Below are positions 33,501-36,500 of a stretch of DNA of 64,000 nt, piece after piece. Where the stretch lies: the NCBI GenBank assembly GCA_951406725.2, contig OX597815.1:5642001-5706000 (forward strand), given 5' to 3'. How positions within the stretch are numbered: the first letter of the stretch is position 1; each line of letters starts with the position of its first letter. The notes under the pieces are model-generated. The model worked only from the letters and a program-made list of their open reading frames with translations, had not been told where the DNA came from and did no database searches. The translations under genes were made by a program, and so were the position numbers. This stretch comes from Octopus vulgaris (Eukaryota).

Positions 33501-36500
33501 GCACAGAGGCCAGTCGAGGCTGGCAATGGCTACGATCGGATGGTACTTTTTAAGTGCTACCGGCACGGAAGCCAGTCAGGGCGGCACTGGCAACGGCCAC
33601 GTTCGGATGGTTCTCTTATGTGCCACCAGCACTGGTACCACAGCTACAATTTCCATTGATGTTGATCGATTTTGATTTTTGATTTTTTGATTTTTTGATT
33701 TTTTGATTTATATTTTTTGATATATATATATATTTTTTGATTTATATTTTGATTTATATTTTTTGATATATATATATATATATATATATATATATACACA
33801 CACACACAGATATATTTCTTTATTGCCCACATGGGGCTAAACATAGAGGGGGAAAACAAGGACAAACAAAGGGATTAAGTCGATTACATCGACCCCAGTA
33901 TGTAACTGGTACTTATTTAATTGACCCCAAAAGGCAGAAAGGCAAAGGTGACTGTGTCGGAATTTGAACTCAGAACATAACGGCAGACGAAATACTGCTA
34001 AGCACTTCACCCGGCGTGCTAACGATTCAATACTTAATCCAGTGTAGACGTTTTCCACGGATTCCAACATTTGCCAATTTTGAGAGTAAGATATTATGGT
34101 CAACTCTGTCGAACGCTTTACTGAAGTCAAGATATATGACATCAGATTTTGAACCTGTTTCCAAGGCTTTAAGTATAATTTCAATGTGGTGTAAGAGCTG
34201 TGTTAGACATATATATATGTGTGTATATATATATATATATATATATATATATATATATATATATATATATATATTACGGAGATGTACTCGCATAGCAAGT
34301 AATTTGATCTGAGATCGTGTGCTGAGACAAAAACAATTGCAGCGTGGAAGGTGTTTGTAAGCCATTTAAGAAACACACAAAAGCCGTTCGATTCACTTCA
34401 ACATTTAAGTTTAATTTGTCAAAATATTTTCGTCGCTAAAATCCGCGACCTGTTCACTGACAAAGTCTGTGCTGCATCTCAGAGATGCAGCACAGACTTT
34501 GTCAGTGAACAGGTCGCGGATTTTAGCAACGAAAATATTTTGACAAATTAAACTTAAATGTTGAAGTGAATCGAACGGCTTTTGTGTGTTTCTTAAATGG
34601 CTTATAAACACCTTCCATGCATATATATATATATATATATATATATATATATATATATATAAATATATACACACAAAGTAAGTTAGGGGTTATGGGTGCA
34701 ACCCACTAAGGGATAGTATTTATCCAATATACTGTTGGTAAGGTACCCAAATTCTTAATACATAAATATTTTTAATTGCAATGCAATTAACTTATTTATT
34801 TAATTAAACGGGTGAAGATAATGAAATATTTTTACCATTGATTTATAATACAAATAAGAAAATAGAGAAACAATTTAGTTTGTTCATCAACTTTCGGATA
34901 TTAGAATGTTGGATTATTTATTCATCTAACAAAATGACAACCTTAATAGCATACATATCCTATATAGGATGGACAAACTAAATTGTTTCTCCATATTCTT
35001 ATTTGTATTATATATATATATATATATATATATATATATAATAAATATACATACAATGGGCTTCTTTCAGTTTCTGTCTACCAAATCCACTCACAAGGCT
35101 TTGATCAGCCTGAGGCTATACTAGTAGACACTTGCCCAAGATACCACACAGTGGGACTGAACCTGGAACCATGTGGTTGGTGAGCAAGCTACTTACCACA
35201 CAGCCACTCCAGCTAACAATTCTGCAAGCTCTCCACCCTATTTTGATAGCAATAATAATAATAATAATAATAATAACAACAACAAACGGATTAACCAAGA
35301 TGCATGTCTCCTTTCTTTTCTTAAGCTGTCAGAGTGGATATCCACCAGCCATTTGGCTGCTATTTCTAGTAGGCCCGCTGCCACATCAAGGCTCTCTCGT
35401 GGGCTTGTCTGAACCAGTGATGTAGTTCTCAGATGGTATCTTCACCAAACATGTTTCCTAACTATTTCCTGTTGTAATGTGGACTTTTAACACCAACAAC
35501 TCAACGACCATCCCGCCCCCCTCAGGTTTACGCCATCCCCACATTTCTCAAATAACTGACCTACATACCTTTTAAGCCGTGCTGCTTCAACCATTCCACC
35601 GATGACAGACGAGGAAATTTCGGATGATCGATATTCAGTGGGGAGTTGTGGCCCGCAGGTTGGGGCAACAGCATGGACTGGGGCAGCTTCTGTATTTCGG
35701 CAGCCACCTGGAAGAGGAAGACAAATAAGTCACTGAGACACGGGGATCTTAAAAGGGGACACACAAAAAGGGAAAGATACGTGCAGGAGTGGTTGTGTGG
35801 TATGTAGCTTGTTTACCAACCACATGGTTCCAGGTTCAGTCCCACTGCATAGCACCTTGTACAAGTGTTTTCTACTATGGCCATGGGCCAACCAAAGCCT
35901 TGTGAGTGGATTTGGTAATACAGTTTTATATTTAAGAGATGAGGAATTATTTACATTATTTACATTTGATGGATATTTGTCCTCATCTTGTTTGTTGTTA
36001 ACATAACGTTTCGGCTGATATACCCTCCAGCTTTCATCAGGTGTCTTGGGGAAATTTTGAACCTAGGTTCTCATTCCTAAGGTATTTTTCAATGTTATTA
36101 TTATTATTATTATTATTATTATTGAGTGAGAGAGCAGTGCATGCCATCAAAGTGACACTGGGGTAAAATATACGAAGCCCAGTATACCCATCATGACTAC
36201 CCGTCTGATAAGGGTACACCAGGCACATGCATTGCAACCATATGTGCACGACATGGTGATCTCATAAAAAGATAAACAGCACATGACCTTGCAGGTGGGG
36301 CCCAATTAGAATATTTTCTTCAGGTCGAGTAACTCATCCTGCTCAAAAGGTCCCTGAATAAGGGTTGTTTAAGGATGTTGAATGAAACACCCTTGTTTCC
36401 AGAGGTGAATTATTCAAACCCTAAAGAATCCCTCTTGACTGTGGCTATGATATTATTATTATTATTATTAATATTATTATTATTATTATTATTATTATTA

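Follow-up and report, generated by a model that had tools for sequence, protein, structure and literature searches.

The closest described counterparts of the locus analysed here are the minimal type I hammerhead ribozymes of Penelope-like elements (PLEs). According to the available sections of their description (Cervera and de la Pena 2014, PMC4209133), these ribozymes share with the octopus family reported below the position in the pseudo-LTR, the type I topology, an extra nucleotide at 9/10.1, the G10.1-C11.1 pair, a short palindromic stem III, a frequent U17, and the occurrence as thousands of solo copies and as opposite-strand pairs. They differ in the pair between core positions 3 and 8, which is C3-G8 or U3-A8 only in the sequences described there and G3-C8 in the octopus family, and in the inserted nucleotide, which is H in the published consensus and G in octopus. 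Natural covariation of positions 3 and 8 is shared with the U3-A8 hammerheads reported, in the sections at hand, by Perreault 2011 (PMC3088659) and for Schistosoma Cercyon (PMC4209133), and U3-A8 also occurs in four relatives of the octopus clade. U3-A8 takes two transitions, for which a route via a U·G wobble is possible, whereas G3-C8 takes two transversions via a non-pairing state.

The same base swap has been made in engineered C3G/G8C hammerheads including PAc (Poseidon, Anolis), as described in the accessible parts of PMC11167929, PMC8495972 and PMC3884650. PAc further resembles the octopus motif in its location near the ORF start, in internal reverse transcriptase (RT) starts that give rise to a tail, and in the use of uncut RNA as insertion template (PMC11167929). 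The engineered swaps are laboratory mutants, whereas the octopus swap is a natural, fixed state; moreover, the octopus motif, unlike that of PAc, lies wholly before the start codon, and a stem III with a 4-nt palindromic centre is a further point of difference. No natural G3-C8 hammerhead was found in the literature searched, which excludes the largest variant survey (Lunse et al. 2017), and that survey could contain one. None of the alignment rows inspected in the supplements of Cervera 2014 carries G3, all beginning with CUGA or UUGA, nor does any of those inspected in the supplement of Craig 2021; the available portions of PMC6765202, PMC6155905, PMC6962438, PMC10085705 and a 2026 bioRxiv retrozyme preprint hold nothing on the swap. 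The G3-C8 core is likely a natural form of a variant that we otherwise found described only as a laboratory mutant.

A hammerhead-type motif in a head-to-head insertion

All coordinates refer to the analysed window, a 64-kb stretch of Octopus vulgaris DNA (OX597815.1). Two inverted arms of 139 nt each (34342–34480 and 34482–34620) are 98% complementary and separated by a 1-nt spacer at 34481. They differ at exactly three sites (arm positions 47, 124 and 137), in line with the nearly spacer-free 279-bp palindrome with about three mismatches that the first-pass annotation had reported; two of the three mismatches are CpG-type transitions, both in the right arm. The left arm (minus strand) comprises the end of a pseudo-LTR, a 5′ UTR with the hammerhead-type motif and the first codons of an ORF (ATG at 34365). 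On this side the Penelope element extends 67 further bases past the arm (34275–34341, minus strand), a "tail" formed by the next 67 bases of the ORF start up to the long 3′ end (~+207) of the family; two other copies (L059 and L061) continue from there into the ORF, and 3′ ends cluster at ~+147 and ~+207. The right arm (plus strand, ATG at 34597) is an inverted short copy whose end at ~+139 lies close to the shorter of the two family 3′ ends. The whole unit (34275–34620) is bounded by (TA)n microsatellites at 34209–34274 and 34621–34669, the left and right flanks of the insertion target, and (TA)n or TA-rich flanks are found in most of the family copies listed. At the head-to-head junction (34479–34483), each arm ends in one non-templated G (34480 on the minus and 34482 on the plus strand), which precedes the putative transcript start, i.e. 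the +1 A at 34479 on the minus and 34483 on the plus strand.

The intact motif (34415–34464, minus strand) was assigned by folding and by alignment to related families, and a second one lies at 34498–34547 on the plus strand. Read from the centre outward, the left arm consists of UUUGUCA, GUGAACA, an extra G, GUCGC, an 8-nt loop, GCGAC, GAA, AAUAUU, U and UGACAAA; the right arm has GCAAC in place of GCGAC. The core GTGAACA occupies 34457–34451 (minus) and 34505–34511 (plus). In the minus-strand motif, the 7-bp stem I (34464–34458/34421–34415) is followed by G3 (34457), C8 (34452), A9 (34451) and one extra G (34450) between A9 and G10.1. The 5-bp stem II (34449–34445/34436–34432) is perfect in the left arm and has a C·A mismatch in the right one (34528). 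It is followed by GAAA with G12 at 34431, by the self-complementary AAUAUU of stem III (34428–34423, 6/6 self-complementary) and by U17 (34422), the cleavage position, with the predicted cut between 34422 and 34421. The corresponding plus-strand positions are G3 34505, C8 34510 and U17 34540. Compared with the consensus C3 U4 G5 A6 N7 G8 A9 ... G12 A13 A14 A15.1 ... U16.1 H17, all positions agree except 3 (G) and 8 (C), and the architecture is that of a minimal type I hammerhead, with stems I and II and a stem III formed in the dimer. The GUGAACA core, both stems, GAAA and the palindromic stem III had all been listed in the first-pass annotation and were found again; its description was correct but lacked the extra G after A9, U17 and the 67-base extension on the left. 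When compared with 200 shuffled sequences, the left-arm motif gave a folding z of −2.9 and the right-arm motif one of −0.6. An alternative register, in which G3 forms the last pair of stem I, corresponds to the minimum-energy fold; it was rejected, as position 3 would be missing and position 17 misplaced, and as the alignment of the sister families agrees letter by letter with the register chosen.

A chance resemblance to a hammerhead, or a sequence held by a reading frame, would fit with the Rfam search, which gave no hammerhead match at the gathering score in the whole window or up to E = 10 in 34250–34650, and with the short TAA-terminated open frame that runs through the motif. However, the motif precedes the start of the ORF, any frame is broken by the loop II length of 8 or 9 nt in different subfamilies, and the equivalent position in sister families is occupied by canonical CUGAAGA or CUGAUGA hammerheads whose stems show compensatory changes. 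The G3-C8 hammerhead pattern had 3,607 forward-strand matches in the genome versus 15 for a reversed control; the motif is therefore not a chance product. Judged by these comparisons, the chance or reading-frame explanation is extremely improbable and may be regarded as already refuted unless the positional homology is wrong. The only Rfam matches were to generic hairpins (miRNA) and are caused by the palindrome; thus, the motif escapes Rfam in addition to strict CUGANGA searches, for which this had been predicted.

The palindromic arrangement had been put forward as special, but it is common in the family. Among the 30 best-matching loci, 17 have an inverted arm within 60 bp of the 5′ end of the main arm, the inverted arm ending at query position 139–154 in 13 of them; the main arms, which had been selected for full length, end at 203–206. 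A sample taken by genome position showed 3′ ends in the same two classes (~+147 and ~+207). Inverted 5′-truncated copies with a one-sided tail are typical of Penelope insertions (Craig 2021, available sections of PMC8557442), and the tail has been attributed to RT starting at two internal sites early in the ORF (Frangieh 2024, available sections of PMC11167929). The suggested recent origin did not hold up either: the 2.2% divergence between the arms is of the size seen between the palindrome and other family copies (94–99% identity), so the locus is not unusually young.

Long perfect palindromes are known to extrude cruciforms, and 139-bp arms with a 1-nt spacer could do so. The palindrome might then itself be a functional or unusually young unit, either a ribozyme pair or a cruciform former. 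We consider this highly improbable, since the identical arrangement recurs in 17 of 30 loci, the same junction is found at G000:C1:104705396, and the right arm has lost one stem II pair. Moreover, the two motifs lie on opposite strands, so that the palindrome cannot make a dimer; because they face opposite ways, its transcript is one motif paired to its own antisense, and was modelled as a single 137-bp hairpin of about −241 kcal/mol. As each motif pairs with its own antisense, the palindrome would be silent. It is similarly improbable that a fold-back artefact during sequencing or assembly produced it. No listed contig piece spans the palindrome stretch, which speaks for an artefact, but the arms differ at three sites, two of them CpG transitions, the tail is present on one arm only, both arms end at family-typical positions, and many other loci show the same pattern with varied junctions. 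The palindrome is a routine head-to-head Penelope insertion and adds no information on the ribozyme. Taken as a whole, the locus is quite probably a pair of short head-to-head Penelope end-pieces in a TA repeat, carrying minimal type I hammerheads with a family-wide G3-C8 pair and likely weak, probably protein-assisted cleavage.

The source element and its Neptune-like features

A genome search with the left arm and its extension yielded 438 candidates, of which 40 were scored at 93–100% identity. In several copies, the sequence continues upstream into a microsatellite-rich pseudo-LTR and, past it, a GIY-YIG endonuclease domain. When 20 loci were picked by the endonuclease region, the motif was found ~1 kb downstream of GIY-YIG in 19; the remaining one (L035) gave only a partial motif match, ~1.6 kb on. 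RT motifs are in the same frame as GIY-YIG (L051–L057), with stop-free frames of up to 755 amino acids. Pfam assigned no family to the RT-endonuclease (RT-EN) protein, and for this reason the RT and GIY-YIG motif names are assignments made by inspection. No PLE protein was found among PDB sequences. The protein has 187 homologs, the best of which are named RT-domain proteins; the closest of the named proteins bears the label Octopus vulgaris, and this genome encodes it at 99–100% identity.

The full layout is seen in L059 and L100, in which a pseudo-LTR with the motif is followed by an ATG ~60 nt on, the ORF, and a second pseudo-LTR with a second motif. In L100, the motifs on either side of the ORF are 4,261 nt apart and are followed by the first ORF codons again and by (TA)n. 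Pseudo-LTRs, partial tandems, inverted copies and one-sided tails, all hallmarks of PLEs, are present. By its layout and its single ORF, in which a telomerase-like RT is followed by GIY-YIG, the source element belongs to the Penelope-like elements with a C-terminal endonuclease.

Neptune-type PLEs with a C-terminal endonuclease, as far as described in the accessible text of Craig 2021 (PMC8557442), likewise have RT followed by GIY-YIG, a CX3CXXC linker finger, a Cys-Cys/His-His endonuclease motif, TA-repeat targets, partial tandems, inverted 5′-truncated copies and a one-sided tail. The octopus element has the linker finger CQSNCAVC, two Cys within the GIY-YIG core together with two His, and (TA)n flanks; it differs from the Neptune type by DKS in place of DKG and by 128 amino acids between RT motifs 3 and 4. 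The linker finger and the TA preference resemble Neptune at the level of motif description. Insertions between RT motifs 3 and 4 have been tied to clades with an N-terminal endonuclease (Craig 2021, same sections of PMC8557442). In L051 (3948–5909), the insertion occurs together with a C-terminal endonuclease and with no Pfam match, and the clade of this element may be poorly described in the literature.

The 3-8 pair in the source family and its relatives

On both strands the G3-C8 motifs amount to ~7,000, as extrapolated from the forward count; the count for the reverse strand is too high owing to the variable end of the pattern. When the eight letters of the core were left free, 5,842 genome matches were obtained. 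In the first 100 of these listed, counted by eye, G3 was present in 97, C8 in 96, both in 93 and the whole core in 87, whereas C3 was found in none; loop II of the same 100 copies occurred in several sequences of 8–10 nt. An ancestral C3-G8 subfamily was sought, and no C3-G8 copy in the source-family background was found genome-wide; the 12 source-family copies with C3 and either C or G at position 8 are all C3·C8. Among the variants listed from contigs of four runs from four organisms (five weaker ones lay outside those shown), none at ≥3% affected the core and many affected loop II. U17 was found in all 100 copies listed (by eye) and in 55 of 56 copies examined. The reciprocal swap proposed for positions 3 and 8 is therefore borne out as fixed in the source family, which is the outcome that the suggested check of genomic copies had called for.

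Sister family B, with 58% protein identity, has C3-G8 at the same place before the start codon. The C3-G8 pattern gave 5,419 genome matches, including families C and D; between their eight-letter core and that of the G3-C8 family, positions 3 and 8 are the only differences. Stem II shows compensatory changes between family A and families B and C. In metagenomic relatives, the motif was found downstream of the ORF in 8 of 18 inspected loci, in a search that applied no filter on positions 3 and 8; four are C3-G8 and four U3-A8, with both the extra G and a stem III palindrome in all eight. The other ten loci (nine without motif and L221, which is degenerate) were left out of the covariation count, as were the more distant C3-G8 loci L239, L242, L253/254, L256/257 and L268, and L142, L162 and L197 were collapsed with close kin. 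The 3-8 pair is of the Watson-Crick type in 11 of 11 lineages (6 C-G, 4 U-A and 1 G-C). Pairing in 11 of 11 was reached by a fraction of 0.0004 of permutations, a value that is only indicative and not a true P because the lineages are related.

A tree was built from 22 RT-EN proteins. In it, the C3-G8 families of this genome form the sister group of the G3-C8 family (support 100/99), which identifies the swap as the derived state; L167 and L190 cover less than a quarter of the alignment columns, and family C was without an ORF in the tree. G3-C8 arose once in the tree, so its fixation counts as one event and not many.

Several observations were made on the relatives themselves. The metagenomic PLEs of the clade with U3-A8 cores (L192, L196, L198 and L210) are scattered on the tree, suggesting repeated exchange between C-G and U-A. 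Family B (L105, L106, L114 and L116) is very young, with stop-free frames of ~1,310 codons in many copies and 99% identity; its hammerhead has A9C, with U17 in the youngest copies and C17 in older ones. A solo pseudo-LTR end of this family lies in the window at 19271–19604 (minus strand, core at 19431) and contains a C3-G8 hammerhead with C for A9.

Putative transcript start, insertion and possible cleavage

Among the first 100 of 2,064 copies reaching +1 (two of which represent one duplicated locus), 48 continue into the pseudo-LTR and 52 stop within ~4 nt, as counted by eye. In 28 of the 52 stopping copies (by eye), a G replaces the C or T of the element, and the letters past it are unrelated. 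In both palindrome arms the terminal G is likewise not encoded by the element, and a TATA-like run is located at −30 relative to +1. Reverse transcriptases of retrotransposons are known to copy the cap. From the positions and letters at these ends we infer that +1 is a capped transcript start and that the non-templated G was copied from the cap; such a fixed RNA 5′ end explains the centre of the palindrome. Such a G is frequent at the 5′ ends of short genomic copies, consistent with reverse transcription of a cap. The palindrome junction would thus mark the likely capped transcript start of the element, with the 5′ G as a genomic read-out of that start. The sequence around +1 can also be read as a splice acceptor (CTAAC, pyrimidine tract, YAG), a reading that is disfavoured because the copies stopping there share no upstream exon; no joint at +1 was seen in RNA contigs, an observation of little weight.

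The features of the locus can be accommodated in the following scheme. The RNA would start 22 nt before G3 and be capped. RT would prime at two sites inside the first ORF codons (~+147 and ~+207), copy back to the RNA 5′ end and add a G opposite the cap. Joining of two such cDNAs at their 5′ ends would give a palindrome that lacks a spacer and has a tail on just one of its arms. Cleavage, if any, would need two same-sense motifs paired via AAUAUU, as provided by tandem pseudo-LTRs or by two transcripts, and would act on molecules other than those inserted.

Copy ends were also evaluated around the predicted cut site. Of the first 100 listed copies anchored 3′ of it, only two, from one locus, break within 3 nt (by eye), and 1 of 34 arm starts lies within 5 nt of the cut site versus 16 of 34 at the transcript start. 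Judging from these end positions, the inserted copies clearly derive from uncut RNA. No pile-up of ends at the cut site was seen in the assembled contigs, the only material inspected for it. The motif region is present in contigs of putative RNA runs, which may represent read-through of solo copies.

For the Penelope hammerhead PAc, C3G and G8C each abolish cleavage and the double change restores it in part (available sections of PMC11167929), and rescue by an engineered 3-8 swap is also covered in the review PMC8495972, as far as accessible. A G3-C8 variant was described as more active with G17 than with C17, as data not shown (Kalweit and Hammann, PMC3884650, sections at hand), and on this ground C17 could trap G3, and the U17 of the source family may be permissive. 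Speculatively, U17 may have allowed the swap in the first place, as the core could otherwise be trapped by pairing of G3 with C17. In vitro, metazoan minimal hammerheads are poor at cleavage (PMC4209133), and that of PAc needs its protein for cleavage and is dispensable for insertion in vitro (PMC11167929), both according to the available text of these reports.

In the octopus source family, the core positions other than 3 and 8 are canonical and stem III is a perfect palindrome. Useful cleavage by its motif appears slightly more probable than an even chance would give. The fuller reading falls a little short of even: the family would represent a natural active G3-C8 hammerhead of ~7,000 copies that is missed by CUGANGA and Rfam searches and forms the third 3-8 state in one Penelope clade, enabled by a prior U17; its cleavage would be confined to protein-assisted dimers and to transcripts distinct from those that, capped and uncut, give rise to insertions.

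A less likely, though substantial, alternative is that the motif descends from a hammerhead without useful cutting, its fold including the 3-8 pair being kept as a 5′ UTR element for binding or folding of the element protein, or simply inherited from a few recent master copies. It is in accord with the uncut inserted copies, with the partial nature of the engineered rescue, and with the unimpaired in vitro insertion of PAc hammerhead mutants (available sections of PMC11167929). It is further favoured by the folding model, in which the active dimer (−27.2 kcal/mol) is disfavoured by about 2–4 kcal/mol relative to two monomers (2 × −14.7 kcal/mol) and to the best co-fold (−31.3 kcal/mol), tertiary contacts being outside the model, and by the C that replaces the invariant A9 in the young sister family B, where it is fixed and stem III is only 4/6 self-complementary, and in L192. 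As A9C occurs in L192 and in a thriving family, the core is not under strict constraint in the clade. Against a non-cutting descendant stand the Watson-Crick 3-8 pair, which is part of the active core and is kept in all 11 lineages in three forms, and the intact U4, G5, A6, A9, G12–A15.1, U16.1 and stem III palindrome across subfamilies that differ in loop II. The first-pass annotation had proposed selection for catalysis. Selection on the 3-8 pair is upheld, but the catalytic part is not, since uncut inserts and A9C argue that cleavage is not needed for mobility.

If the motif cuts, the consensus used in hammerhead searches needs a G3-C8 branch, and ribozyme counts for animal genomes are too low. 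If it does not, the kept 3-8 pair points to a non-catalytic role of the fold. Given that the inserted copies clearly derive from uncut RNA, the clade offers a natural series in which to probe the purpose of Penelope hammerheads, with C-G, U-A or G-C at positions 3-8, A or C at position 9, and U, C or A at position 17.

The window contains further repeats. A different repeat contains, from 50708 onward (plus strand), a hammerhead-like motif that combines a canonical CUGAAGA core with one inserted base and a stem II of 6 bp. Tandem copies of a 183–184-bp interspersed repeat are located at 30788–31159, 40655–41027 and 44824–45372, and tandem units of 62–67 bp at 32052–32254 and 33418–33632. Degenerate (TGG)n arrays with extreme GC skew make up ~5 kb of 9415–15752, with more arrays at 26277–26880 and 60892–61627.
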